64,000 nucleotides of DNA. Source: an uncultured Hormoscilla sp. (lineage in GTDB: Bacteria > Cyanobacteriota > Cyanobacteriia > Cyanobacteriales > Desertifilaceae). Of the stretch, positions 2,872 through 19,563 are shown in pieces. Within the stretch, counting starts at the first letter, position 1. Each line of letters starts with the position of its first letter. The position numbers were made by a program, and so were the translations under genes. The stretch lies in contig OZ001293.3 in NCBI GenBank assembly GCA_963921275.4, positions 4,128,001-4,192,000 of the forward strand. Direction: 5' to 3'. The notes beneath the pieces were generated by a model that was given only the letters and a program-made list of their open reading frames with translations, was not told the origin of the DNA and searched no databases.

Positions 2872-4497
2872 ATGAAACTGTCTCGCCTGTTGACGCTGAT
2901 TATCGGTCTGACCGTAATCTTAGGGCTAATGCTGTGGATGATCGATACCCTGCGTTGGTTCTACTGGCAGATTTCTTATTCATCTCCCCTGCTGGGTACT
3001 ATTGTGCTGCTGTTGCTGATCCTGCTGCTAGGACTGGTAATCGCAGCTTTTGTCTATTACGTGCTGCTGTTTGGGGGGGCTGGCAGCAAAAAGGGCCAGC
3101 GCTATGTGAAGCCGAAAGTGCCTCAAGCTAAGAATGAGGCGGCTTCCGAAACACTCCGGGCCGTGCGCAAACAGGCCGAGCAAATTCAGGATAAGGTGGC
3201 CCGACAGGCTTTAATTGAGCGATCGCGCCAGATAGAAGGTAGCCTGCAAGCAGGGGTGTTGCGGGTGGTGGTGTTTGGCACTGGTTCAGCGGGGAAGTCT
3301 TCGGTGGTGAACGCGCTGCTGGGCCGGATGGTGGGGCAGGTGTCCGCACCCATGGGAACTACGGAAGCGGGGCAAACCTACAGCCTCCAGCTGAAGGGGT
3401 TGGACTGGCAGATTTTGATTACCGATACTCCAGGGATTTGCGAAGCAGGTGTGGCGGGAACCGAGCGGGAACAGCAGGCCCGAGAGTTAGCGACAGTAGC
3501 AGATTTACTGTTGTTCGTGGTGGATAATGACCTGCGCCAGTCGGAATACGAACCCTTGCGGACTTTGGCACAGATTGGCAAGCGATCGCTACTAGTGCTG
3601 AACAAAACGGACCTGTATCCCCCGGAGGAAATGGAAGCGATTCTGGGGCGTCTGCGGGAACGGGTGCAGGGGTTGATTCCTGGCAATGATGTGGTAGCCT
3701 GTGCGGCTAATCCCCCAGAGGTGGTACTGGACAGCGGCAGTATATTTCAGCAGGAACCGGACGTGATGCCTTTAATCCGCAGGCTAGCTGCGGTGCTGCG
3801 AGCCGAAGGAGAAGATTTGGTCGCGGACAATATTTTACTGCAAAGCAGCGCCTTGTCAGAGGAAGCAAGGCGGATTATCGACGCCCAGCGCAAGCGTCAG
3901 GCGGACAAAATTGTCGAGCAGTTTCAGTGGATAGGTGGTGGCGCGATCGCGGTCACGCCATTGCCAGTGGTAGATTTATTGGCAACTGCGGCGGTAAACG
4001 CTCAGATGGTAGTAGAAATCGGCAAAATCTACGGCTGCGAGCTCAATATGGAACGGGGACGAGAACTGGCCTTGTCTCTGGCGAAAACTTTGGCCAGTTT
4101 AGGCATTGTCGAGGGAGCATTAAAGTTGGTGACTGCGGCATTACAATTGAATGTGGCCACTTTTGCGATCGGGAAGGCAATTCAGGGAGTGACTGCGGCT
4201 TATCTGACCCGGATTGCTGGTAAGAGTTTTATAGAATATTTTTGTCACGATCAAGATTGGGGTGATGGGGGGATAATTGAGGTGGTGCAGCAGCAATTTC
4301 AGCTCAACCGCCGGGATGAGTTTGTCAAGGTCTTTATTCAAGATGCGATCGCGCGAGTCGTCCAACCTTTGAGCGATCGATTCTATTTCGTAGAAGAGGA
4401 AAAGGAACAGTCGGAACCGGCGTCACCCGCACCTATAAGCAAGTTTGAGCCCCTGGATGATTGGTCCGAACCGCCACAGATCCAGGATGATTGGTAG
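2872..4497 (+). CDS. Membrane-anchored Era-like GTP-binding protein with DUF697 domain (YcjF-like)
   Basis: Two N-terminal TM helices; GTGSAGKS, DTPG and NKTD motifs; PLPVVDL motif. Confidence 0.8.
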   Translation: MKLSRLLTLIIGLTVILGLMLWMIDTLRWFYWQISYSSPLLGTIVLLLLILLLGLVIAAFVYYVLLFGGAGSKKGQRYVKPKVPQAKNEAASETLRAVRKQAEQIQDKVARQALIERSRQIEGSLQAGVLRVVVFGTGSAGKSSVVNALLGRMVGQVSAPMGTTEAGQTYSLQLKGLDWQILITDTPGICEAGVAGTEREQQARELATVADLLLFVVDNDLRQSEYEPLRTLAQIGKRSLLVLNKTDLYPPEEMEAILGRLRERVQGLIPGNDVVACAANPPEVVLDSGSIFQQEPDVMPLIRRLAAVLRAEGEDLVADNILLQSSALSEEARRIIDAQRKRQADKIVEQFQWIGGGAIAVTPLPVVDLLATAAVNAQMVVEIGKIYGCELNMERGRELALSLAKTLASLGIVEGALKLVTAALQLNVATFAIGKAIQGVTAAYLTRIAGKSFIEYFCHDQDWGDGGIIEVVQQQFQLNRRDEFVKVFIQDAIARVVQPLSDRFYFVEEEKEQSEPASPAPISKFEPLDDWSEPPQIQDDW

Positions 4498-4620
4498 CTA
4501 CTCTACGCCCCGCGCCCCGACGCCCGAACCCTAAAGGGTCCGGCAGTTACAAAGCCCGCCTGCGCGGGCTAGATTATATTAAAGTGCGATCGCATTTTTT
4601 GTAGGTTGGGTTGAAGCATG

Positions 4621-4745
4621 GATGCTGTTGGCGAAATCCATCTCGAAAGACGAATAAGAGCGTGCTACAAGAACGAGAAATCTTTACTTGGGCGATTAGT
4701 AATACTCAATGTAAGATGCTTGGTAGCACATTCGCCAACAGTATC
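4621..4745. mobile_element. 125-bp MITE
   Basis: TIR GATGCTGTTGGCGAA / TTCGCCAACAGTATC; 7-bp TSD AAGCATG (4614-4620, 4746-4752); empty site present in the repeats at 5646-5916. Confidence 0.85.
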
Positions 4746-4878
4746 AAGCATGAAACCCAACCAGAACATCCTGTCGGACGGACAATAATTCCTGGCAGCA
4801 GAATAACGATCGCTTCTCTCAATCCTGGGATATAATAGAGGCGATCGATACCCACCCTAAAGCAATAAGCAAGTCGCT

Positions 4879-5127
4879 ATGACCAGAAAAAATCTATTAT
4901 CTCGGATTTCTATCGATCCGAATATCTGCTTTGGCAAACCTTGTATTCGGGGGCATCGCATTTGGGTTTCCCTAATCCTTGATTTCTTAGCCAGCGGGAT
5001 GACAATTTCCGAACTGCTTGAAGAGTATCCGGGTATAGAACGAGATGACATTCTTGCTTGTATTGCCTACGGCGCTGAGATGGCACGGGATCATTATATT
5101 GAGATTCCTCTGGAGGCGAAAAAGTGA
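4879..5127 (+). CDS. DUF433 family antitoxin
   Basis: ISIDPNICFGKPCIRGHRIWV...DDILACIAY; overlaps the downstream toxin start. Confidence 0.9.
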   Translation: MTRKNLLSRISIDPNICFGKPCIRGHRIWVSLILDFLASGMTISELLEEYPGIERDDILACIAYGAEMARDHYIEIPLEAKK

Positions 5128-5495
5128 ACATAAAGCTTGACGAAAATCTTGGTAGCGGTCGAGTTGTAGCACGGTTACGTCTGGCAGGGCATGATGTAGC
5201 TACAGTGGAAGAACAAGGTCTGAATTCTACGCCTGATGTGGAATTAATTGATATTTGTCGCCAAGAAGGCAGATGTTTAGTTACTTTAGATCGGGGCTTT
5301 GGTAACCGCATCCGCTATAAACCTTCTGATTATGCTGGAATTGTTGTGCTACGCTTGCCACCGCAACCCACCCCAGAAAACTTGCGGGAAGTAGTGGAAA
5401 CCTTAATCCGTGGGTTGGATGCCGCAGAAATCGAGGGTAAACTATGGATTATCCAGCGCGGGACTATTCAGGAGTATCAAGCATATTCAGAATAA
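5124..5495 (+). CDS. DUF5615 (VapC45-like) PIN toxin
   Basis: IKLDENL, GHDV and LVTLDRGFG motifs; coupled to the DUF433 gene. Confidence 0.85.
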   Translation: MNIKLDENLGSGRVVARLRLAGHDVATVEEQGLNSTPDVELIDICRQEGRCLVTLDRGFGNRIRYKPSDYAGIVVLRLPPQPTPENLREVVETLIRGLDAAEIEGKLWIIQRGTIQEYQAYSE

Positions 5496-5645
5496 TTTGT
5501 CTTGCCCGGGGTGAGGTTAATCTACAAAAAAGAGAATTTGTGAGAAGCAGCGCGACAATAAGCGGAGATATTTTTGGGAGGAAAAGGACCATATAGTAAC
5601 GTGGGCATTGGGAGATCCGTCATTCGTGCAGGATTTGTGAAAGTG

Positions 5646-5916
5646 CGATCGCATTTTTTGTAGGTTGGGTTGAAGCATGAAACCTAACATTGACATCCTG
5701 GAGGGCGAACAATAATTCCTGGCAGCAGAATAACGATCGCATTTTTTGTAGGTTGGGTTGAAGCATGAAACCCAAAATTGACATCCTGGAGGGCGGACAA
5801 TAATTCCTGGCAGCAGAATAACGATCGCATTTTTTGTAGGTTGGGTTGAAGCATGAAACCCAAAATTGACATCCTGGAGGGCGGACAATAATTCCTGGTA
5901 GCAGCAGAACGATCGC
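5646..5916. repeat. Three tandem 88-bp repeats bounded by CGATCGC
   Basis: CGATCGC at 5646, 5734, 5822 and 5910 (88-bp period); near-identical units. Confidence 0.9.
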
Positions 5917-5971
5917 TTCTCTCAATCCTGGGATATAATAGAGGCGATCGGTACCCACCCTAAAGCAATAA

Positions 5972-6200
5972 TACCATTTGCAAAAAATGTTGCTACAATT
6001 CGTACCCTCTAATTTGCTCTCTTCGCTATCAGCCCGCCTTCGGTGTATCGTGGGAGCGCTATTCGCACTACCCACGATACACCGAGGGTTCAAACCCCCT
6101 ACGTTCTCAGGCGGGAGCCAGGGAACGAGGCTAAAGTCGGTTAAAACCGACTAACAGGATACTGCTCAAAAAAATGTAACATATTTTTTATGAAATGGGA
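5972..6200. mobile_element. Composite MITE with nested palindromic elements
   Basis: Ends TACCATTTGCAAAAAATG.../...TTTTTATGAAATGGGA with TAA duplicated; absent from the paralogous site at about 4860-4878. Confidence 0.7.
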
Positions 6201-6213
6201 TAAGCAAGTCGCT

Positions 6214-6432
6214 ATGACCAGAAAAAATCTCTGATCTCGGATTTCTATCGATCGCAATATCTGCTTTGGCAAACCTTGTATTCGGGGGCATAGGATCTGG
6301 GTTTCTCTAATTCTTGACTTCTTAGCTAGCGGGATGACTATTTCGGAACTGCTTGCAGAATATCCTGGTATAGAACGAGATGACATCCTCGCTTGTATTG
6401 CCTACGGCGCTGAGATGGCACGGGATTCCTAT
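6214..6432 (+). pseudogene. Duplicate DUF433 antitoxin pseudogene
   Basis: Near-identical to 4879-5110, but codon 7 is TGA instead of TTA and the 3' end diverges; no toxin downstream. Confidence 0.85.
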
Positions 6433-6725
6433 GTCGAAAGCAACTAAAGGCAGAGTCTTCAGAAATCGGGCGATCGATCGCCTGTTGCGGTATGGTAAGA
6501 TTTGCGATCGCAGGGCAATAAAAAGCGGGGATATTTTTTGCTGCCAGCACATTCACCAGTAGACCAGAAACCCGGTAGGTCGTAAAAAGGGTGCGGTCAC
6601 AAGTAGTTTGAAGTCTGCAGACTCATAACCGGTTTGGTGCGACCTGCTGCAGGTGCTGAGAGACCAAAATTGATAAAGAAACCCGGTTTCACCGCTTACC
6701 GCCCCCACGGGAGTATCCTCCGACA

Positions 6726-6866
6726 AGCGCAAATATGATTTACTCCGAAGCATATTTACTTTATCTCTCAGCAAATATGATTGGCACCGAAGCATATTTG
6801 CTTTGGTCATTTTAAATAATATTTGCCGCCGAGCAAATATTATCTGCCGCCGAGCAAATACCATCT
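6726..6866. repeat. Degenerate 21-bp tandem repeats
   Basis: Recurring GCAAATAT/GCATATTT...CCGA units with about 21-bp period. Confidence 0.6.
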
Positions 6867-7126
6867 AGGCCTGCCGATCTATGTAATGATCCGGAGTTTT
6901 CCCGGGATCCCCCGACTAGATAGATACTAGACCTGGCGTCCGCCAGTCAGATGACGACGGGTGTAGTCTTGCACCAGTTGGTAAAAAAATACTACACCCA
7001 CTTCTGGTGGGCAGTGCTGGCAGTGCCCCACCTTAGGAATGCAACGACAAATGAGCCGCACCCTCGTAAAAACCGGGTTTCTTGATTCTTTATTGCGATC
7101 GGACCGGGGGAGAATTATTTCGGACA

Positions 7127-7666
7127 CTACTCCCTGGAATCTTTGGCAAAACCATTCTCAGCAGGAGCATTTCTTAAGTTTACATCCTGCTGAGAATCTG
7201 CCGCCGGGTTTTGGATAGAGAGTTCTGGGGGTAGCGGGATAGTTATTTGCAGGTTTACACCAATTTTTATTTGATTGTTATCAAAACTTATATTAGTTAT
7301 ATTAACCACATTATTTCCTAGCGAACCATCACTGACTGGTAATTTAGTAGGGAGCTGCGTTTGATATCCAGCATCATCAAGCCACTCAGCAATATCTCTC
7401 CAGTTTTCTATCTTTTCACCGCTTTTGTCTACTAGACTTTTAACGTACTTATATATAGTGGCGCAGAGATCCGTTTCCACGCCCTTGCTATTTTTGCCCA
7501 GCGTGTCAGCGATTTTTGTTGGACTACAGCCACAAAGCAGCCCCCGCAGGTGCAGCTTCTCAACAGGTGTCAGTCGCTTGCCCTTAGCGGAGGCCAAGTC
7601 AGTGTAGAGAGTTTCCAAGTCCCAGTGCTGTGCGGCCTGGGCAAACTGCTCGTTAGTAGATTTCAT
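7127..7666 (-). CDS. HTH protein of the cyanobacterial type often found N-terminal to NB-ARC/conflict proteins
   Basis: LTPVEKLHLRGLLCGCSPTKIADTLGK...IYKYVK...IENWRDI pattern. Confidence 0.65.
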   Translation of the reverse strand: MKSTNEQFAQAAQHWDLETLYTDLASAKGKRLTPVEKLHLRGLLCGCSPTKIADTLGKNSKGVETDLCATIYKYVKSLVDKSGEKIENWRDIAEWLDDAGYQTQLPTKLPVSDGSLGNNVVNITNISFDNNQIKIGVNLQITIPLPPELSIQNPAADSQQDVNLRNAPAENGFAKDSRE

Positions 7667-7995
7667 AGTTGGTCTCTTCTAAAATTACTGATAGGATCCT
7701 AACACAATTCCTGATACACACCCGGAGATTACTGTATAAAGCTAGCTTATGATGAATATACAGTAGTTGACAGCGGTGCGATGCTACAGGGAAAGAGGGC
7801 GAGAGAGTCGAAGCTCAAGCAGCCGGTGATGGAAATGGCCATCCGGACGTTACCTCAGCCAAGATACTGTCCAACTGCCGGTGTCGTGCCGCCAAACTGC
7901 TCGTAAGCAGATTTCATAGCTAGTCTCCGCTCAAATTCCTGATTGAATCCTAACATAATCACTGATATCCACCCGGTAATTACTATGTAAAGCTA

Positions 7996-8894
7996 GGGCG
8001 TGTCATCAGTTAGATTAACGATATGGGTCCCCACCAAAAATATATAACAAGATGATTGAGTTGACAACCAGGATATATTGGTGTAATATAAGAGGGTAAA
8101 GGTTAGAGCAGGAGAATTTGAGAAATGCGTCGCTATGCTTTAAGAGATGACCAGTGGGAGAGAATCAGGGATCTATTGCCAGGTCGGGAGGGTTATGTGG
8201 GGGGGACAGCTAAGGATAACCGCTTATTTGTCTATGCTGTCTTGTATCGATATAGAGCTGGGATACCTTGGCGGGACAACTTACCCGAGCGATTTGGGGA
8301 CTTGAGGGTAATTCATACGCGCCATAGTAGGTGGTCAAAATCCGGGGTATGGGAAAGAGTATTCAAGGTACTTGCGTCCGATGCCGATAACGAATATGCG
8401 ATGATTGATGCCACGATATAAAGGGCTCATCAACATAGTGCAGGTGCTCAAAAAAAAGATTGCGACCCAAGCCATCGGACGCCGTAAAGGGGGTTTGAGT
8501 ACCAAAATTCACGCGACCTGTGACGCATTGGGGAACCCAACGGGTTTTCATTTAACAGCCGGTCAAGCTCACGATTTGGAAGGGGCTGATGTGTTACTTG
8601 ATAATATTAAGGCTGATGCGTTACTCGCAGACAAAGCTTCTGATGCTGACGAACGGGTTTTGAAACGTCTTGAAGCCCAGCAATGCGAACCTGTGATTCC
8701 GCCTAAATCCAATCGAAAAGAACAACGCCGTTATGACAAATATCTATACAAAGCACGTCATTTGATTGAGAATTTTTTTGCCAAACTCAAGCAATATCGA
8801 GCCATTGCCACCCGTTACGATAAGAGGGCTCAGAATTTCTTGGGTGCTATCTACCTGGCTGCTACTGTTGTTTGGCTTAACTGATGACACGCCC
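7996..8894 (+). mobile_element. IS5 family element (IS427-like, two-ORF transposase), probably inactive
   Basis: TIR GGGCGTGTCATCAGTTA at both ends; TA duplication; orfA 8125-8421 (extra 1-bp loss in DATI-VRAHQHSAGA), A-run slippery site near 8450, orfB to 8884 with IATRYDK. Confidence 0.92.
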
Positions 8895-8947
8895 TAGCTT
8901 ATGATAAGTAAAGTAATGGGAAAATCATACGAAACCGGTCTCTAAAA

Positions 8948-10101
8948 GTGGACTTCTTTGAAATTACTGCCGAGGCTGAAAGCCGCTATGACAGGCACAA
9001 CCTGATTGACTGGTGGGACCAGGCAAAACTCAAGGCTGCCAGAGTGCTGGTGACTGGTGCTGGTGCTTTAGGCAACGAAGTGCTGAAGAATTTGGCCCTG
9101 GTGGGTGTCGGCAATATCACCGTCATTGACTTCGATACGGTCTCGGTCACCAACCTAACTCGGTCCGTCCTGTTTCGAGAATCAGATGTCGGCTTGCCGA
9201 AAGTAGAAGTTGCCCGTAAACGCGCCCTTGAGATTAACCCAGAGATAACAATTGAGGCAATTCACGGCGATCTGGAATTTGACATCGGCATTGGGGATGT
9301 TCGGGAACATGACATTATTATAGGTTGCCTGGACAGCATTAATGCGCGGTGGGCGATTAATCAGCTTGCTTATCGTGCAGTCATTCCCTGGATCAACAGC
9401 GGTATTGGCGTTACTGAGAAGGAAGTAAGTTTTTTCGATCCCAAAACAGAAGCAGCTTGTTATGAATGCACCATATCTAACCGGATGTGGGAGAGGCGCA
9501 ACCAGCGATACTCTTGTCAGGGGATGAAACGGAATCTTCCTGAAGCTGCCATGCCCACGACAGCCCCAATAGCCTCCATAGCTGGTGCGATGCAGGTTCA
9601 CCAAGCACTCCTATATTTCACGGCAAAACAGGACTACTCGATCCAGGGGAAAAAATATTTCTGGGATTAAATCCTTGGACAGCTCTCAAAATGCAAATTC
9701 AGCGTCAGGAGACTTGTCTTGCCCACGACTTATCCATTGAACCGGCAATAGAGATCGAGTACGATCCAAATATGAAGGTGCAAGAAGTTCTGAAACAGTT
9801 AGATACATCGGGATATGCCGAACCAGTTCTCTGGCTACGCAATGAAGTGATAGGCAAGATGACCTGCCATAAGTGCGGGTATGAGGAACAGGCGAACGCT
9901 CCCCTACGCAAATATCAAGAATCCCAGCAAGCTTGCCCCAAGTGTGGTTATGAATCAAGGGATTTTGAAGTAATCAGGAATCTGACTCTAGAAGATTCCT
10001 GCGCCAGCGTTATCTTAGAAGAGTTATGTCTGACGACGAACGAAATACTACACTGCGAGACCGCGAAAGGTCAAATAGCAATTCAATTTCGCCCAGCATA
10101 G
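8948..10101 (+). pseudogene. E1/ThiF-family ubiquitin-activating enzyme with C-terminal Zn ribbon, frameshifted at about 9615
   Basis: GAGALG, DFDTVSVTNLTR, CYEC, YSC (candidate catalytic Cys), PTT; the other frame continues HGKTGLLDPGEKIFLGLNPW...CLAH...CHKC...CPKC. Confidence 0.85.
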
Positions 10102-10112
10102 GAGGAGTAAAT

Positions 10113-10373
10113 ATGGCTGATGCACTTTCTGTAGTTGTTCGTATGGCTGATGGAACCCGTAAAGCAGCCGTTAACTTGCCTGGTACTCTCATAATTGGAC
10201 AGCTTGTGCAAACCACACAGCAAAAGTGGAATCTTCCCGCTAATTCCAACTATGCTGTGCGTCTTGAGCGTACAGGTCAACAGTTAGACGCTTCTGCAAC
10301 TCTTAATTCAGTAGGAGTTCAGCCAGACGATGTGCTCTTAATTTTCCCAGTTTTAGAGGCCGGTCAAAAATGA
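10113..10373 (+). CDS. Ubiquitin-like (EsaB/YukD-type beta-grasp) protein, 86 aa
   Basis: GGAGGAG RBS; LDASATLNSVGVQPDDVLLI Ubl signature; C-terminus LEAGQK. Confidence 0.8.
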   Translation: MADALSVVVRMADGTRKAAVNLPGTLIIGQLVQTTQQKWNLPANSNYAVRLERTGQQLDASATLNSVGVQPDDVLLIFPVLEAGQK

Positions 10374-10888
10374 GTGTACGAGAAAAAAGACTCCAAAATG
10401 ACTTTCAAAATTTATCGGCACTGGTTGATAACTCTGGTGGTACGCTAGCGATTATTTCAACGAGTGGCAATCCGCCGTATCAATATGTTATCGAATATCG
10501 ATGTCGAGGCATAGAGCAGTTGCGAAGATATGAGCCAGATGAGCCAGTGTTCCGCAATACTCATCGGGTATAAATTACTCTAGGCAGCAATTATCCAAGA
10601 GAACAACTGGCTGCTAAGTTTCTTACTCCCATCTTCCATCCCAATGTCTATAGCAGTTTAATAATTTGTCTTGGCAATGATTGGACAATTTCAGAAACCT
10701 TAACTGAATTAGTTATCAGAATTGGCAAAATAATTCAATATGCAGATGACATAACCAATTTGAAAAGTCCAGCTAATGGGGAAGCTAAAAGCTGGGCAGA
10801 AAGGAATAAGCTGCGTCTTCCAGTAGATACTCAGACATTCAAATCCCAAATTTTTTCTTGGGATGAACAACCGGTCAACATTAGTTGA
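10370..10888 (+). pseudogene. E2/UBC ubiquitin-conjugating enzyme with in-frame TAA at 10571-10573
   Basis: REKRLQNDF start; after the stop the same frame reads ITLGSNYP...FLTPIFHPNVYSSLIICLG..W...NLKSPANGEAKSW to TGA 10886-10888. Confidence 0.88.
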
Positions 10889-10958
10889 CAAGATTTATAG
10901 GGTGATAGTCATGAACCAATTTATCCAATTTATTTCCAATATTATTAGGAGGATACGC

Positions 10959-11483
10959 ATGTCACAAGGACCGGAGTTACCATTTACTCGACGAAATAAC
11001 CCTGAAAGAAGAAGAATTCCAGATTCAGAACAGCAAGATCAAATTGTCTGGGAAGACAGTGCTCAAATTGTTTGGGAAGACAGTGAGGATGTTTATAGGC
11101 CGATTCCCAAAAGACATAGTAATTTTCAAGCTGAACGCGGCGTCGCAGCACCACGAGTGTATATCAAAGCGAATGCTCTTCATGAACTAAAAGATCATCT
11201 AGCATCTAATACACGAGTTGAACAAAGTGGTATTCTTTTTGGGAATGCCTACCAAGACCAGCAGCATGGAGTCTACGTTGAGATTACAGCAGCCGTAGCC
11301 GCCCCAGCAACAATTGGAACAAGCGCACACCTAGACTTCACGCCTGATTCCTGGCAGGGAATTATGGATTATGCGAAGTCTAAGCATTCCGGAGAAAACA
11401 TTGTAGGCTGGTATCACTCTCATCCGAATATTGGCGTGTTCATGTCAGGAACGGACTTTTTTCTCTATGACAACGCTAAATAA
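10959..11483 (+). pseudogene. JAB/MPN+ metalloprotease (deubiquitinase-like), apparently 3'-truncated
   Basis: EQSGILFG and VGWYHSHP...MSGTD JAMM motif; ORF ends 8 codons after the Asp; AGGAGG before ATG 10959 (alternative ATG 10911). Confidence 0.75.
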
Positions 11484-12099
11484 ATTGGTATTAAGGATAA
11501 CCATAAATTGTCGAGATATGAATGGGAAAATATTATTTTATTCCGCTGCGATCGCGTATAAAGAATAGCTAAAATGACAATGTTTTTAGTCGGTTTTCAA
11601 CCGACTTTAGCTATTAGCCGGGGGTTTGAACCCCGGCGGGCTATCGGAACAGATACAAGATATATTTGAGAACAGATTTTGGGATTAGACGTGAGCGAGG
11701 TTCGGCGATCGCCCCAAATACTTCCCCCGAAAACAGAGATGCGATCTGGTACTTTTGTTTAATATAATTTAGGCTGCGTAGGCGGACTTGGTTTGTATAG
11801 CCCTACCCTTTAGGGTTAGGGCGGGGTAGCGGGCGCAAAAGTGAGGTTCACCCGAGGCGATTGCCTCTTGCTGGGATAGGGTGCAATATGCTAAACTACA
11901 CAACAGACTTGCCTTGCATGGGTCTTAGGGGCACGCCAGCAACACCTGACCGCAGTAGAGAGAGTTTGGGTCCTCTTCCACCAGACTACTCTTAGCATAC
12001 AAGGGGCACGGCATCAATAAATTATCGGGTGATTGAATTAATTAACTCACGCCATGCCCCGGACGGCACCGCATATTATTGCCGATAACAATATAATTG

Positions 12100-12180
12100 G
12101 CGATCGCCCTAAATCCTTCCCCGAAAACTCCAGATGCGATCGCCCCAAATTCTTCCCCGAAAACCGAGATGCGATCGCCC
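12100..12180. repeat. About 35-bp tandem repeats bounded by HIP1
   Basis: GCGATCGCCC(C/T)AAAT..TTCCCCGAAAAC...AGAT twice; related copy at 11705-11746. Confidence 0.7.
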
Positions 12181-12279
12181 GTAAAGAGGAAAGTATCGGG
12201 GTTGTTACCATTGGTCATATTAATTAAAAAACGACGAGCAGTTTCGTAATCCATCTCCAGTAATATCTGGCGCAACACT

Positions 12280-12947
12280 CAGGGTATACTGCTGGTGGAG
12301 TGGGTATGGCAGCAGCCTTTAGCTTCTATCCCAGCAAAAATTTGGGAGCTTGTGGGGATGGTGGTATGGTTTTGACCAACAATGCCGAAGTGGCCCAAAA
12401 TGTGCGATCGCTCTGCAACTACGGAGCCCCGCACAAATATTATCATACCGAGTTCGGTATCAACAGTCGGCTGGATAACTTACAAGCAGCCATACTCAAT
12501 GTTAAACTTCCCTATCTGGAGCCGTGGAACCAATCTCGTCGGGAAGCAGCAACCATTTACGACGCCCAACTAGAACCATTGCAGGATCTAGGAATTCTTC
12601 CCATTCAGAACCACAGCAATACGGGGCACATTTATCATTTATACGTAATCCGCCTGCTGTCCACTTGCTCCATAGACCGGGATATCCTAGCTGAGAAACT
12701 GAACGCCCAAGGCATTCAAACTGGCATCCATTATCCCATTCCCTGTCATCTACAACCAGCTTATAAATATTTAGGCTATCGTGCTAGTGACTTTCCCCAG
12801 GCCGAAACTCTCTGCCAGCAGATTCTCTCCTTACCCATGTATCCCGGTCTGACTACCGATCGGATCGGGGGCATAGTCGCTACCATTAAATCAGCGATCG
12901 ACGCCTCCGGGGTTTTTGCGTCAGCGCAGCGGCTGCGCAGCCGCTAG
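12280..12947 (+). pseudogene. DegT/DnrJ/EryC1/StrS aminotransferase, C-terminal half only
   Basis: FSFYPSKNLGACGDGG PLP-lysine motif, NSRLDNLQAA, LSLPMYP; N-terminal half missing; 3' end carries a palindromic insertion. Confidence 0.85.
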
Positions 12948-13056
12948 CATCCCGGAGGCGTCGAAGGTGTGTCATAGGACTGCGCGTTTGTCTGTCCGAG
13001 GTAACCAATAACTGATAACTAACAACTGACATGGTGGGCAATGCCCACCTACCAAA

Positions 13057-13550
13057 TAGACATCTCCAAAATAGAAATTTATGCTATAATAAGATTTGAA
13101 AATTTAATTTTGTGACGAGTATTACCTGGACATATTTGCAAGCCAAGCCTAAAGAAGCAAAACGGCTCATCGGTATCAGCTATGAAAACTTAATACAACT
13201 TATTGCAATTGCTAAAAAGTTGGATAAAAATCATAAAGAAAAGGTGGAAGAACACAAAACTAGATTGATAAGTCGGAGGGGTGAAAGCTAAATTATTAGT
13301 AGAAGAGCAAATAATTTTAACTTTGATGTATCTGCGTCAAGGATTAACATTCCCAGTATTAGCTATACTTTTGTCAGTGAAAGCTAATGATATTTTTAAT
13401 TATTGGCAAGATATTTTCCGCTTTGCCGTTTACTTGAACAAAAAAATGGAGAAGATGAAGAATATTTATCTAAACTTTTAACAGAATATGAGTTGATAGT
13501 CGATAGCGCAGAGCAAGCCATACCAAGACCTAAAGACTATGAAGAGCAGT
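13057..13550 (+). mobile_element. IS5-family (ISL2-like, HTH_Tnp_4) transposase remnant
   Basis: AT-rich; starts TAGACATCTCC; KRLIGI and EEQIILTLMYLRQGLTFPVL; frameshifted and truncated. Confidence 0.65.
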
Positions 13551-14254
13551 AGGTGACCCGTCCAAGTCACGATTACCGGGGAAGTCGTCAGACAGGGATT
13601 CTATCCCCTAGCTCAGCCTTCCCTCTCTACCGCTTTGCTGATCTCCGGTGGCACGAACCAGCAAGCAGACCTGCGAAGGGTACTGGTACGTCGGACTTTA
13701 ATCGATGGTTCTGCGATCGAGAAAGAGATTGACCTGTTTAGCGCTCTGAAAAACTCCGAGCCAATACCCGATTTACGCTTAGAAAATGGAGATGTGGTGA
13801 TCTTGCCTCAACTGCCACCGGACGATCGCGATTATGACCGGGCATTGATCGCTACTACTAACCTGGCTGAACCACAGATCAGGCTCAAGCTTTTGAGATC
13901 CCCTGGTGGGATTGGTAATCTCACATTGCCAAACGACAGTACCTTTGTCGATGCGCTGCGATCGGGGCAAATCCTGACATATCCGACATCCGAAACATTG
14001 CTTTGATCCGGTTTGAGCCAAAAGAGGGCAGAACGGTTACCTATATCTTAGATGGTAAAAGTGCTCTGCTGGGTGACACCGATCAAGACCTGCTTTTGCG
14101 CAATCACGATGTCATTGCCGTAGGTCGAACCCTGATCTCTAGGATTAGTTTTGCCCTGATGACTATAACCCAACCATTCCGAGATATTTTGGGATTTCTG
14201 TTGTTCTTCAATCAATTTGATAATGTCTTCAACGAAGATCGCAGAAGAAACTGA
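13551..14254 (+). pseudogene. Polysaccharide export protein (Wza/SLBB) C-terminal fragment
   Basis: VTITGEV, ADLRRVLVRR, DLRLENGDVV, LRNHDVIAVGR...TQPFRDILGFLLFF; frameshifted. Confidence 0.8.
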
Positions 14255-14303
14255 TCGGTATTAAAATAATTTAACATCAAAAATTACCAAGGAAAATGCT
14301 ACC

Positions 14304-15450
14304 ATGACTTCACCCATTGTTAAGCGCTATCTGATTGCCTTAAATAAATACTGGTTTTTGATACCAGTGGGAATTTGGGTCGGTGTAGCTGGGGGCTTTG
14401 TTTACGATCTTTTTTTGCAATCGACTACCCAACAAACTGAATACACGATTACAGGAGTGCTGCGGTACACTCGTCCCCCAGTGACATTTTCTGAAATAGG
14501 TAATGTGATTCAAGACCAGGGACAGAAACTGACCCTGGAGGAACTGCTGGTTCCTAAGGTGCTGGAGTCAGTGATAGCATGAGATGGAGTGAAAACCGCG
14601 CCAAAAGATATTGTAAAAGCGATAAATGTCACACCTCCTAAAAAAGATAACTCAAAGCTGATGGTTATCTATAAAACGACTGATGAGTCGGAAGGACTGA
14701 TCGTAACGACAGCATTAATGGAGGAGATGGTAGAACGGAGTCGCGAAATCAATATAACCCTTTGGCGATTGGTGATTGACGAAATTAACAAACGCTTGCC
14801 AGCAGTGCTGGAGGAAATCCGGGCCGCAGAGCAAGATTTGGAACAGTTTATCCGACGAGAGCAAACGGCACTCTTAGCGATCGAAGCTGGGCAATTACCA
14901 GGCTCAATTGTCAGCAGTCAACAACAGCAACGACAGATTCAACTCCAGCTAGAGGGGATTGAGGCCCAAATGCAAAGCCTGTCCGAGCAACTGGGGTTGA
15001 CACCGGAAGAAGCCTACGCTTCAGCAGCCCTCAGTGCCGACCCGATTATTGCCGATCTGCGGGCCCGATTCTATCAAACTGAAACTCAAATGCAGCTAAT
15101 GAGTCAAGATTTGCGACCCGATCATCCATAATGATGCAGTTGCAGCGGGAACTCGAATCCTCTGAGCAATTGCTAGAGCAGCGAGCAGATGAGGTGATAG
15201 GCGGCAATGGCCAAGGGACACCACTTGTCAGTGAGACGATTCGCCAAGACAGCAACCTGGATCCAGCACGGCAACAGCTGGCTCAGACTCTAGTAAGTTT
15301 ACAAACACAGCGGGAGTAACTGCAACGGCAATTGCAGGTGGCGAGTGACCGAGAGCAGGAACTAAGACAACGGTATGAAACTCTGCCCAACAAGCGACTG
15401 GAAGAAGCGCGGTTGCAGCAACAGCTGGAGTTGAAAAAGAGTTTTTACAT
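14304..15450 (+). pseudogene. GumC/Wzc-like polysaccharide chain-length/export protein
   Basis: MTSPIVKRYLIAL, ALSADPII, DLRPDHP; stops at 14580 and 15317, frameshift near 15129, truncated. Confidence 0.8.
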
Positions 15451-15678
15451 GGCTGAGTCCATCAATCTCCTCGCCTCTACGTGTGAATTCCGATTTTTGG
15501 GAGCCATCATTAACGGAGAGTATATGCCTCTGCACTCACTATCACCCATCGAGTCTCCAGCTTGATCGTTGTTCATTGAAAATTGAAAATTGGCGTTCCC
15601 AGGCGGGAGCCAGGGAACGAGGAAAATTGCCAATTGTGAATTTGTGATTATTTATTCATGTCCATTTTCCATTTGCCA

Positions 15679-17236
15679 TTATTCATCATAGTCAAATGGA
15701 TGGGGTCGAGCCGGGAATCGCTTCCCGACCCTCCCTTGAGGAACCGGACTTGCGATTTTCACCGCATCCGGCTACTGGGTACTAGGCCCTTTTCATAGGT
15801 AGACTTAATAGGAATTACTTCCGTTAGCCCTTGCCGCCTGTCTTTTCTTCCCTTTCCTGGTTTAGCGAGTGGTTGTTCTGATAACCGTTAGTATCACCAT
15901 TTTCAAGTCAGTTTTACCAGTTATCCATACCTTATCCTCCACTTGCGTTTCGGATTAGTTCCGTGGCTTTTTAGGATTACTCATTCCAGCAGCTTCCTAG
16001 TATCACCGACCCACGTCAGCGCTGGCTACCCAGCATCATCTACATTACTGTAGATGTTATCCCAGGAATTACCCCGGGCATTCGCTTCTTGGGCCATCCC
16101 TCCCCCCGTGGCTTGCGCTTAACATCTAACTTGTCCTGATGGACAGCACACGAGAGGTTACTTCGTTCCCTAACAACATTTCGCGATACCTTTAGGTCCA
16201 CACTATACCCCGGGAGCTATTTGAGTACTATATTAGCCAGAGTCTAAAACTAATACTAGCTACCATTTCCTTTTTAGGCCAGCGCATATAGCCTTATTTC
16301 GCTGGTTCCTTATAACGAGGCTTGCACATGTTTGCCTGCTCTAACCTTGGATATCTTTCCTAGCGGCGTCACCGGCTTAGGCTGCCAGTTATCCTACATT
16401 TGAGTCCTCGCTTAGCACCACGATGATGTCGCTTCGTAGCACCGAGGACCGGTGTCACCCCCGTACCTGGGGGGAGGGGAATTTAACCCCCATGCGGTCA
16501 GAGTTCCTGGCTAATGAAACCGGGCTAGCGTTCCGTGTTTGACCACGTTAGGCTAGAACGAATCGCACAGACCCATCAAGGGTGCTAAAAGCGCCCCAAA
16601 CACAAATCCACCAGCATGGGCCCAGTATGCAATTCCGCCCATATTAGCGGGTGCATTCAGACTGGCAAAGCTAGAAATCGCTTGGGTGACAAACCAAATA
16701 CCCAGAAAAACCATCGCTGGGATGCGAATGGTAGTGATAAAATACCCCAGGAAAACCAATGTGAGAACTTTAGCCCGGGGAAACCTGATAATGTAGGCTC
16801 CCATTACACCTGCGATCGCCCCTGACGCGCCCAAGGAAGGGATATCAGAAGACTGGGAAAAGAACCACTGGGTCAATGCCGCCAACATCCCGCAGATCAG
16901 ATAGAAGATGATAAATTTGACATGACCCAGTTTATCTTCCACATTGTTGCCAAAAATCCAGAGAAACAACATATTCCCTAACAGGTGCATCCAACTCCCG
17001 TGCAGGAATTGGGAGGTAAACAGAGTCAGCCACTCTGGCACCGGTTGGTTTACTGCCACGCCAGTAAAGCTAGCAGATAGCTCCCTGGGAACCACTGCAA
17101 ACAGGTGGTAGAATTCTCCTAGTTCTTGGGGTGCCAAACTAACTTGATACAGAAAAATCAGGATATTCGTAGCAATCAGCCCATAGGTAAAATAGGGGGT
17201 TGATTGGGTGGGATTTTCGTCATGTAAGGGAAACAT
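15679..17236 (-). CDS. Rhomboid family intramembrane serine protease; exon 1 17236-16569, exon 2 15697-15679
   Basis: HLLGNM, GASG and AHAGG motifs; removing the intron gives ...LMGLFDYDE*. Confidence 0.85.
15698..16568 (-). ncRNA. ORF-less group II intron (871 nt) in the rhomboid gene
   Basis: 5' GTGCG; domain V AGCCGGATGCGGTGAAAATCGCAAGTCCGGTT; domain VI hairpin; EBS1 AGACTC pairs with IBS1 GGGTCT; no RT ORF. Confidence 0.9.
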
Positions 17237-17641
17237 TGTAAATTGTAAATTGTAAATTTTTGATTATTTCTTTGCAATACTCCGGACACTTTGGGGAACT
17301 CTTAACTCTTAACTCTTAACGGGAAACACTCCTTCGTAGTCCTTTTGCTGCAACCCTTTAGGGTTGCGGCAATGGGACATTAATTTTTTCGGAAGTCAGC
17401 CCCCCCGGCTAACAAACCCAAAAATTGCTCTGTATAGCATTGGCTTACCCTGCAAGGCTTACAGCGGAGTTGTCAAAATTGTCCGGACTATTGTCTTTGA
17501 CAATTCGCCATTTTCCATTATTATACTTCTGGTTAGGGCCAGATAATTGCGGCGGTGACACAGTTGGTTGACATTGGTTGCCAATCAAGCTATGGCACCG
17601 CCGCTGCGAGGGTCTAGCTGACCGAAATTGGCTAGTGCATC

Positions 17642-18130
17642 TTAGCGAGCACTTTTACCCCCTGCCCACCGGGACTCTATCTGCGGTTGGGTGAGCAGAT
17701 AACCGGCAATATCTACCAGATCGTCTTCTGTCAAGTTTCTCATCTTAGGAAAAATATCGGCACTGTTGATGCCAGGGTGCTCCTCGGAAATGTCCTCTTC
17801 TCCGTCGAAACTCATGGGGGCCTTCAGAAAATCCACTATCCCTTGAATGTTGTCGCGCGGTGGCGTTGCCAGAGATAGAGTTTCCAGGTCCAGTCCGATA
17901 TTGGGATTAGTTTTAGTCATTCCCTGGCCGTGACAGCTTGAACAGGCATAGTTAAACTGCTTTTTCCCGTTGTCAAGCTGCTTCTCGGTCAAGACGATCG
18001 TCTCACCATCTTCATTCTGTGGCACAGTACGGGTGGCTTCGTCTAGTTCGAGGGCAGTGACACTGCTGACAAACATGACAAAGGTCAATAATACAATGGC
18101 TACAGCTAGCCAGGTGTATTTTTTTAGCAT
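17642..18130 (-). CDS. psbV: Photosystem II cytochrome c550
   Basis: Signal peptide, LELDEATRTV, CSSCH heme motif, ADIFPKMRNL. Confidence 0.95.
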   Translation of the reverse strand: MLKKYTWLAVAIVLLTFVMFVSSVTALELDEATRTVPQNEDGETIVLTEKQLDNGKKQFNYACSSCHGQGMTKTNPNIGLDLETLSLATPPRDNIQGIVDFLKAPMSFDGEEDISEEHPGINSADIFPKMRNLTEDDLVDIAGYLLTQPQIESRWAGGKSAR

Positions 18131-18606
18131 GGTTCTCCCTAAAAATTTTTGTTCTTTTATGGCTTGGGCAACCCCAGATGCAGCATCAGGACACACCGAT
18201 AACCTTATCCCGGACTGAACAATACCAGTTGTCTGGCGGTCTAGCCCGGGCGGAGCCAGTAGATGACTGGCTCTATGGCTAGTAATCTGAAGCTATGTTG
18301 TCAGCTTCTTTGTCGGCTAGCGGGCGGCATGGTTTGTACCCTAAAGCTAGATCTAGAGTTGCACCTCATATGAACATCATGCCATTGCGGTGCTCTTTTC
18401 CCAAGCCTCTTCCCTGCCAGGCAAGGTGAGTATGTCTCTTGGATGTCTCAGGAGTAGTGCGACTATGATGTCCCCGGGTTTCGCCGTGCGCCTGGGGGAC
18501 ATCAAGCTCTGGTGGAGACATCGAACGCTTCCAAGATTTAGGGGTGGCGATCGCCATTCGGGCCCGTGAATTATCCAGTTGGCTTATTCCTCTGGTCGGC
18601 AGCTAG

Positions 18607-19563
18607 CTAGTTGATTATGGTCATACTGTTGATTAATTGAGAGTTGGTTAATGCCGTAGCATGGTGATTTCTTGGCAATGATTGTCCATCCTTTGCTAGC
18701 ATGGGCCCAGATTGATGGAGGCCGATCAGCTGGGCGAGGGTTTTTTTGAGCTGGGTGCGAGGGACGATGATATCGACAAAGCCATGCTCCAGGAGATACT
18801 CCGAGGTTTGAAAACCCTCTGGGAGCTTTTCTCGGAGGGTTTGTTCGATCACCCGGCGACCTGCGAAGCCAATGGTAGCTTTCGGTTCGGCGATAATAAT
18901 GTCTCCCAACATGGCAAAGCTGGCTGTTACGCCGCCGGTGGTGGGGTGAGTCAGCACGGGGATGTAGAACAGTTTAGCTTCTCGATGTTTTTCTAAGGCT
19001 CCTGCGATTTTTGCCATTTGGATCAGACTCAGCATCCCTTCTTGCATCCTGGCACCGCCGGAAGCACAGACAATAATGATTGGCAGACTCTCTAGGGTGG
19101 CCCGTTCGATCAGGCGGGTGAGTTTTTCCCCGACTACCGACCCCATACTACCACCCATAAACCGAAAGTCCATAACGCCGAGGGCGACTTTAAAGCTTTC
19201 TAGTTGACCCAAACCTGTCTGTACGGCGTCTGGAAGGTGGGTTTTTTCTTGGTATTCCCGCAGGCGAGCGCTATATTTTTTGCGATCGCGAAACTTCAGC
19301 GGGTCATCGGGATGCAGATGCCGATCTAGGGGTTGCCAAGTCTGGGCATCTATCAGCTGGCGGATGCGCTCATCGCTATCGACTGATATATGATGACCAC
19401 AGTCAGGACAGATCATTTGGGAAGCTTGCAGGTCTTTTGTATAGGCGATCGCCTCACAGGAGGGACACTTGGTCCACAGTCCATCAGCTACCTCACGTTC
19501 TTGTCGCTCTCGACTAATTGGCTCTGATTTTTGTTGATTTGCAAACCAATCAAATATAGACAT
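18607..19563 (-). CDS. accD: Acetyl-CoA carboxylase carboxyltransferase beta subunit
   Basis: GLWTKCPSC Zn finger, [20 protein letters not shown]. Confidence 0.97.

Follow-up and report, generated by a model that had tools for sequence, protein, structure and literature searches.

The stretch of DNA analysed here, referred to as the window, comprises 64,000 nucleotides from the genome of an uncultured Hormoscilla sp. (contig OZ001293.3, positions 4,128,001 to 4,192,000). On its plus strand, at positions 8948-11483, it carries four tightly packed genes whose products resemble a ubiquitin-activating enzyme (E1), a ubiquitin-like protein (Ubl), a ubiquitin-conjugating enzyme (E2) and a JAB protease. 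An earlier reading made from the sequence alone, without database searches (the sequence-only reading), had described the four as a co-oriented, eukaryote-like ubiquitination operon with interruptions in E1 and E2 and a JAB that looked truncated. Reading frames and Pfam matches confirmed the four genes on this strand, and the damage was borne out by a frameshift in E1, a TAA codon in E2 and an end of JAB homology near position 11457. Of the four only the Ubl reading frame has survived; E1, E2 and JAB are dead. We therefore regard the locus, with high confidence, as what remains, in pseudogenised form, of a cyanobacterial ubiquitin-like conjugation operon of a seven-gene type.

The E1 pseudogene (8948-10101, plus strand) was delimited by Pfam and by ortholog alignment. 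It starts with a GTG codon at 8948 and combines a ThiF-type adenylation domain with a C-terminal Cys-rich domain, its fragment matching ThiF (PF00899) with an E value of 8.4e-53 and 179.4 bits (cut-off 28.1). The frame runs from 8948 to 9618 and is resumed in the next frame from 9619 to a TAG at 10099-10101, the two halves abutting exactly. The frameshift was traced to one missing G after 9618, where the window reads TATTT-CAC and the three relatives aligned with it at the DNA level (one same-genus genome and two other cyanobacteria) all read TATTTGCAC. Intact orthologs of 384 residues, with 80-85% identity, are found in many filamentous cyanobacteria, including Argonema, Floridanema, Kamptonema, Planktothrix, Nostoc and Calothrix-type organisms. 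The best relatives of E1 among solved structures are E. coli MoeB (6e-30) and then UBA7, UBA1, SAE2 and ThiF, and the source databases label the orthologs HesA, MoeB or ThiF. In the C-terminal part the zinc-ribbon matches of Pfam were sub-threshold, and four Cys residues are nearly invariant among orthologs. Language-model scores for the last 140 residues reached 0.83 for E2_bind and 0.80 and 0.76 for UAE_UbL, all below 0.9, and the Cys-rich domain is possibly similar to a ubiquitin-fold domain (UFD).

The Ubl gene (10113-10373, plus strand), identified by its open reading frame (ORF), by ortholog comparison and by profile search, encodes 86 residues and is the sole intact gene of the cluster. 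Its start lies 12 bases after the E1 stop and is preceded by a GGAGGAG Shine-Dalgarno sequence, and its stop codon TGA shares bases with the E2 start codon in the sequence ATGA. As a single sequence it matched the Pfam families YukD (E 0.069) and ubiquitin (E 0.097) below cut-off, and no Pfam match to ThiS was obtained. When a profile of 25 Ubls was compared with solved chains, the best matches were di-ubiquitin (about 1e-4) and the Ubl of UHRF1 (6e-4), with ThiS and MoaD not among the chains found, and in the profile match the terminal Gly aligns with G76 of ubiquitin. By these matches the window Ubl is a predicted ubiquitin-like beta-grasp protein. Its C-terminus is LEAG followed by QK, and in 11 of 13 cyanobacterial orthologs the protein ends at exactly (I/V)(L/V)EAG, with the ortholog of locus L013 ending in GGQQ; elsewhere the ends are EGGxx in acidobacterial Ubls and VAG plus 0-6 residues in planctomycete ones. 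These forms therefore suggest that the reactive end is the conserved Gly, with an optional propeptide that the JAB would remove.

The E2 pseudogene (10370-10888, plus strand), delimited by its UQ_con match and by ortholog alignment, has the UBC fold with an HPN motif and a downstream Cys. It is interrupted before the active site by an in-frame TAA at 10571-10573, a position occupied by a sense codon in all 14 aligned orthologs and coding for Glu in most. The part behind the stop still matches UQ_con (PF00179) at 2.1e-7 and 31.1 bits (cut-off 27), and its HPN and Cys align with those of the orthologs. The window E2 also has a 3-residue insertion and a degraded form of the C-terminal W motif that is discussed below. 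The best Protein Data Bank matches of an E2 ortholog are eukaryotic UBCs, at 8e-10 to 1e-6.

The JAB/MPN+ remnant (10863-11483, plus strand), recognised by Pfam and by ortholog alignment, matches PF01398 at 9.8e-10 and Prok-JAB at 2e-7, and keeps the JAMM motif as E...HSHPxxxxxxSGTD. Its similarity to 14 orthologs stops directly after SGTD, near nucleotide 11457, and the sequence beyond is unrelated; the JAB has therefore lost the final portion of its MPN fold, along with any C-terminal extension. Near its N-terminus an in-frame 24-nt tandem duplication (11039-11085, plus strand; a direct repeat of 96% identity) doubles a QIVWEDS motif. In the window's three nearest loci the JAB has 508-532 residues (L008, 7866-9389; L012, 8016-9557; L013, 3511-5109), a hydrophobic segment following the MPN domain and then a region of about 250 residues with no Pfam match. 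The motif details of the sequence-only reading were thus sound as regards the HPN and Cys of E2 and the JAMM motif, whereas the YukD likeness of the Ubl and the zinc ribbon of E1 stayed below the Pfam cut-offs.

The damage extends beyond these three genes. In a tblastn search with the operon proteins of four intact loci (L008, L012, L013 and L016) against all seven contigs of the window's genome (G000), E1, Ubl, E2 and JAB residues 1 to about 190 matched at the window locus only. No second copy was found, and there was no match in these contigs for the JAB C-terminal extension, for either RING protein or for the PIN-like protein of the intact operons. The window copy thus cannot work as a system or run a conjugation cascade, because E1 has lost one base, the nonsense codon of E2 precedes the active site and the JAB ends after its metal motif, and because an insertion sequence (IS) lies 47 nt upstream and the genome as a whole no longer has the RING and PIN-like genes.

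A differently decayed copy is present in a same-genus genome (G003; locus L088, G003:C83, 4280-6061). It retains E1 residues 187-386 only, the Ubl, an open E2 of 171 residues and the JAB to about residue 130; RING and PIN-like genes were not found in this copy. Its DNA is 89% identical to that of the window over the C-terminal part of E1 and the Ubl, but just 73% over E2 and JAB.

Intact forms of the operon were found in other organisms. A locus scan with one genome per species gave at least 598 pattern matches, and among the matches listed 570 encode an E1 relative; the best 80 loci were compared, gene order being called by BLAST of six protein pieces of the window against all of their ORFs. 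The order E1-Ubl-E2-JAB of the window recurs in 12 cyanobacterial loci (L008-L016 and L018-L020) and in loci of Acidobacteriota and Armatimonadota (for example L025-L027, L031 and L034), and the planctomycete loci mostly show the order Ubl-E2-E1-JAB. The four genes thus co-occur elsewhere, as the sequence-only reading had supposed, and its advice that intact orthologs would be the ones to study was well founded, because in the window E1 and E2 are interrupted and the JAB is truncated. Three further cyanobacterial loci looked broken in the ORF scan, with a split E2 (L017), an E1 fragment only (L021) or an E1 in pieces (L029). In a quick maximum-likelihood tree of 78 E1 rows, the clade that holds the window has full support and comprises 13 rows, of which 12 are cyanobacterial; the nearest relative of the window is L008 (87% identity). 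The distribution is sporadic: with an intact E2 as query, matches (E no higher than 1e-10) were obtained in 15 of the 401 genomes that were sampled across the phylum, and in 9 of 156 genera.

In the sequence-only reading no E3 or effector had been visible, and in the window this is a result of decay. Directly after the JAB and on the same strand, the intact cyanobacterial loci encode one or two membrane-anchored RING-like proteins, which consist of an N-terminal hydrophobic segment, a low-complexity linker and a C-terminal domain of about 50 residues. In this domain Cys37, His45, Cys56 and Cys59 are invariant and position 40 is Cys or His. Some of the proteins are fused to TPR repeats (L010, L011, L014 and L015) or to a Big_2 domain (L018). 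Prok-RING_1 was matched by 8 of 15 such domains, at best with an E value of 1.8e-4 and below the gathering score, and a Foldseek search with an AlphaFold model of the domain, whose predicted local distance difference test (pLDDT) score was 84.7, returned nothing below E 0.4. It is probable that this is a degenerate RING-like domain binding a single zinc, and that the proteins act as E3s. The window operon contains no gene for a RING-type E3.

The last gene in 7 of the 12 intact loci, as well as in the broken-looking L017, codes for a PIN-fold protein of about 200 residues with no Pfam match. The PIN fold with its conserved acidic residues is present in this protein; the acidic residues after strands 1 and 4 (E8, D10 and E128) are conserved, E128 in all 27 representatives. 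A Foldseek search with the PIN model gave no better E value than 1.5e-3. The family is very small, those 27 representatives being all that were found at E no higher than 1e-3 among 1.84 billion proteins; a word-indexed search gave 43 clusters. In two members, P0166 (498 residues) and P0175 (440 residues), a Ser/Thr kinase domain lies between the PIN domain and the tail.

A short motif, [IV]-x-W-x-[DE]-[ILVMSC], is found repeatedly at the ends of the operon proteins. It was present in the N-terminal region of the JAB, before the MPN domain, in 13 of 13 proteins, at the extreme C-terminus of E2 in 9 of 12, in the linker or C-terminus of the RING-like proteins in 9 of 15 and in the tail of the PIN-like proteins, usually as two copies, in 7 of 8; none of 12 E1 proteins carried it. 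The rate in the operon proteins, 2.8-7.3 copies per 1000 residues, is an enrichment over the genome-wide 0.063 per 1000, a background taken from the 3363 ORFs of at least 200 residues in the window's genome, 74 of which have at least one copy. Both Trp residues of the tail are invariant in the 27 PIN-like proteins, the tail is predicted to be disordered (pLDDT below 50), and the double-W tail is kept at the extreme C-terminus of both kinase fusions. The motif stands at the same places in loci of Acidobacteriota and Armatimonadota that share the gene order (the JABs of L025 and L027 and the E2 of L026), and it also occurs in upstream ORFs of L027, L028 and L031. Traces are left in the window, namely the doubled QIVWEDS of the JAB and a disrupted SQIFSWDEQ at the end of E2. 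The occurrence of one W-x-[DE]-hydrophobic motif in E2, JAB, RING-like and PIN-like proteins is possibly new. A second candidate for a shared peptide, of the 'DDLxIEL' type, was rejected; it occurred in plus-strand ORFs of 5 of 87 loci, all outside the cyanobacterial clade, with no operon-wide pattern.

Other explanations of the locus have to be weighed against decay of such an operon. It might belong to one of the characterised bacterial systems, namely Bil, Bub or the type II cyclic-oligonucleotide-based antiphage signalling systems (CBASS) with Cap2 and Cap3, which we consider very unlikely. The CBASS models 'E1-E2' and 'JAB' of PADLOC do match E1 and JAB, at 1.5e-19 and 1.1e-7, but these matches are limited to the adenylation and MPN domains that such proteins share, those of the E1-E2 model covering the adenylation domain only (profile positions about 157-320 of 426). 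The Ubl, E2, RING-like and PIN-like proteins drew no match from any model of PADLOC or NCBIfam, and E1 and E2 are separate here, E1 being a 384-residue protein with a single adenylation domain. No Pfam match to a nucleotidyltransferase was seen in the flanking ORFs of 11 of the 12 intact loci or in the neighbours of L020 that were scanned.

It is highly improbable that the living cell has an intact operon whose apparent breaks are errors of sequencing or assembly. A single-base deletion beside a run of T is a common type of long-read error, but independent Logan contigs from each of four public runs, with depths of 4.2, 43, 18.2 and 81.7, cover 8900-11596 with no other letter and no gap, and every lesion is repeated in them; moreover, homopolymer errors do not take the form of a nonsense substitution or of several kb of missing downstream genes. 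The lesions are not assembly errors. Equally hard to credit is a cluster that works through programmed frameshifting in E1, stop read-through in E2 and a short active JAB. The exact abutment of the E1 halves and the single in-frame stop codon of E2 would suit such recoding, but TATTTGCAC is uninterrupted in three relatives, one of them of the same genus, all 14 aligned orthologs have a sense codon where E2 has its stop, the end of the MPN fold that these 14 keep is missing from the window JAB, and tblastn of the seven contigs found no RING partner in the genome. The chance that E1 and Ubl are a MoeB/ThiF-MoaD/ThiS sulfur-carrier pair beside chance neighbours is close to nil, for although MoeB is the best solved relative of E1 and the orthologs carry the names HesA, MoeB and ThiF, an E1 ortholog fell below the curated cut-off of every NCBIfam ThiF/MoeB model (147.5 vs 275; 138.7 vs 266), the Ubl profile finds ubiquitin and not ThiS or MoaD among solved chains, and a UBC E2 and a JAB co-occur with them in fixed order across phyla, so that the eukaryote-like nature claimed for the cluster is upheld.

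Some observations do weigh against the reading of the locus as the remnant of a conjugation operon with the partners described above. The Ubl gene is intact and keeps its good Shine-Dalgarno sequence, and its product could still be made. Nor is the window's end branch in the E1 tree a long one (0.15; the median is 0.21); either the decay is therefore recent or the tree is insensitive to it. The four sequencing runs represent three samples of one study, possibly of the source strain, and their agreement therefore excludes an assembly error without bearing on variation between strains. The leads to a UFD-like domain at the end of E1 all come from a language model, and the strict W motif is missing in 6 of the 15 RING-like proteins, 3 of the 12 E2s and 1 of the 8 PIN-like proteins.

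From the domains, a mechanism can be proposed for the intact form. The JAB would trim the residues beyond the terminal Ala-Gly of the Ubl, and E1 would then adenylate the terminal Gly and take the Ubl onto a Cys, likely the conserved Cys in RYSCQG. This Cys presumably takes the place of the crossover-loop Cys of ThiF and MoeB. The Ubl would be handed on to the Cys of the HPN-type E2, and the membrane-anchored RING-like proteins, some with TPR or Big_2 fusions, might steer it to targets on the cytoplasmic side of the membrane, from which the JAB would also be able to remove the mark. In many loci the last gene encodes the PIN-fold protein, which in some cases carries a Ser/Thr kinase and is likely to serve as an effector or a reader. 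We infer from the analogy with the Atg8-interacting motif (AIM) and LC3-interacting region (LIR), which bind to Atg8, that the E2, JAB, RING-like and PIN-like proteins may dock to the Ubl through the W-x-[DE]-hydrophobic motif that their flexible ends share. Going further, and with more doubt than confidence, we suggest that in the intact cyanobacterial, acidobacterial and armatimonadotal operons the W peptide might serve as an AIM/LIR-like handle with which all the enzymes and the effector hold the same small Ubl, in an Atg8-like organisation that would bring a nuclease or kinase to membrane targets once they are tagged.

The region around the window copy is rich in mobile and decayed DNA. 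The IS, a complete-looking element of the IS4/IS5 family (911 bp, 7990-8900, plus strand), was recognised by its perfect inverted repeats and a Pfam transposase; the terminal repeats are 23 nt long and 100% complementary (7990-8012 and 8878-8900), and 47 nt separate its right end from the start codon of E1. Its transposase is spread over two overlapping frames, 8125-8421 and 8405-8884, matching DUF4096 (2.8e-22) and DDE_Tnp_1 (1.4e-19), an arrangement that may reflect programmed frameshifting or decay. Immediately to the left of the IS there is a 104-nt direct repeat of 82% identity (7642-7745 and 7893-7996), and upstream of the IS a 179-residue ORF on the minus strand (7127-7666) had no Pfam match at E 0.001. 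Just past the JAB breakpoint, contig depth revealed a high-copy short repeat (11569-11636), with a summed depth of 105-2746 as against 4-82 over the genes and with many different flanks, which may be an element similar to a miniature inverted-repeat transposable element. Further on, a 43-nt repeat is present in three copies (11704-11746, 12099-12141 and 12134-12176) bounded by GCGATCGC palindromes of the HIP1 type, a hallmark of cyanobacterial DNA. The locus lies within 14 kb of the window (4497-18607) that are without any ORF of at least 250 residues, a gene graveyard that also holds a fragment of a DegT/DnrJ aminotransferase (12300-12947; profile positions 162-359 of 360), a fragment of an HTH_Tnp_4 transposase (13281-13478) and a group II intron domain match on the minus strand (15700-15776, 44.4 bits). 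An Rfam search found nothing within the four-gene locus, and a scan of 7600-11800 for promoters and terminators did not rise above chance, with 10 promoter-like sites against 8.1 expected.

A role in defence had also been raised by the sequence-only reading. It gains little from the data, as the PADLOC matches are to the generic E1-E2 and JAB domains of CBASS and the flanks of the 12 intact loci consist mostly of housekeeping genes, with defence-like or mobile neighbours in 5 of them (L011, L016, L018, L019 and L020). The defence-island signal from the neighbours is too weak to call. A role as an accessory conflict or defence module fits the sporadic spread, the variable flanks, the PIN-type partner and the repeated decay, which was seen in the window and in G003 and possibly in L017, L021 and L029; the membrane anchoring of RING-like and JAB proteins and the TPR and Big_2 fusions equally fit a control of membrane proteins. 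For this class of operon, passages of a 2012 review suggest a selfish role of the restriction-modification kind. Directly downstream of the intact operon of L020 (4740-7751) lie genes for WYL/WCX, HD_4 and NYN-domain proteins, a defence-like neighbourhood.

In itself the window copy, a dead accessory operon, is of little weight. Together with the second decayed copy in the same genus it shows that such systems can be dispensed with and are readily lost. The intact relatives are compact and complete cascades of E1, E2, RING and deubiquitinase in culturable filamentous cyanobacteria, with Kamptonema, Planktothrix, Nostoc and Calothrix among the sources. A tractable bacterial cascade that combines membrane RING ligases, a common docking motif and a partner of the PIN type would be of help in studying the function of ubiquitin-type tagging in cells that lack proteasomes, and it would bear on how much of the eukaryotic logic, such as E3 adaptors and short Ubl-binding motifs, predates the eukaryotes. 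The leads worth following come from these relatives, namely their PIN-like partner and the W motif that their proteins share.

The class to which the operon belongs is not new. Burroughs, Iyer and Aravind, writing in Mol Biosyst in 2011, are said to have predicted prokaryotic E1/E2/RING/JAB operons with YukD-like Ubls; the abstract reportedly speaks of E2s with an oxyanion-hole Asn and of E1s with a C-terminal UFD, and the same work is reportedly the source of the Pfam family Prok-RING_1 (PF14446). The operon fits the class as reportedly predicted there, with a separate single-domain Ubl, a ThiF-type E1 with an extra C-terminal domain, an HPN-type UBC E2, a JAB, a small prokaryotic RING and a sporadic distribution across several phyla; unlike the predicted members, the copy in the window is a dead one that lacks a RING. 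The sequence-only reading, which spoke of a possibly uncharacterised system, has therefore to be qualified as regards the class, reportedly predicted in 2011.

A preprint by Chambers et al. (2023), in the passages available, mentions bacterial operon families with Ubl, E1, E2, RING E3 and deubiquitinase as uncharacterised, and a search of full-text literature found no bench study of such a bacterial operon, though supplements and subscription papers may hold more. The antiphage system Bil (BilABCD), as described in parts of two papers (PMC11601596 and PMC11601603), likewise has a separate Ubl, E2, JAB and E1, a Ubl trimmed by the JAB and conjugation through thioesters; its E1 has several domains (IAD-AAD-CYS) and those parts give it no E3, in contrast to the 384-residue E1 with a single ThiF domain and the RING-like genes found here. 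Bub (6E/DUF6527) is also a bacterial E1/E2/Ubl conjugation machine, but the sections of PMC11601596 devoted to it describe Ubl-E2, JAB-E1 or E2-E1 fusions, oxyester (Ser) intermediates and a DUF6527 serine protease, whereas here the genes are separate and the Cys of E2 is kept, and among the operon proteins scanned no Pfam match to DUF6527 was obtained. Cap2 of type II CBASS, going by partial accounts, is an E2-E1 fusion, encoded beside a CD-NTase, and E2 is a separate gene here. The locus is thus not MoeB/ThiS, Bil, Bub or CBASS.

Its individual components also invite comparison. The PIN-like proteins differ from the PIN-domain endonucleases (SMG6/EST1A, Nmd4, the PIN domain of Rrp44, VapC) in having no Pfam PIN match, a tiny family and a C-terminal double-W tail. 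The W motif recalls the AIM/LIR of the Atg8 system, for which excerpts of PMC8255673 give a [W/F]-x-[D/E]-[L/I/V] core lying, as here, on flexible parts of the E2 and of other proteins, for instance WEDL in yeast Atg3; the comparison is functional, with no claim of homology, and in the JAB the last motif position is Ser or Cys here, not hydrophobic. The closest bench-tested system is the ubiquitin operon of Candidatus Caldiarchaeum subterraneum (ubiquitin, E1, E2, a small RING and Rpn11), whose reconstitution in vitro is described in the portions of PMC5654768 available. It shares with the intact cyanobacterial operons a modifier with a cleavable C-terminal extension, an E1, an E2, a RING E3 and a JAB, which there both matures and removes the modifier and is predicted to do so here. 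It is archaeal, with a soluble small RING and a modifier ending in Gly-Gly, whereas the cyanobacterial operons, known from sequence alone, have an Ala-Gly end, membrane-anchored RING-like proteins and a PIN-like gene.

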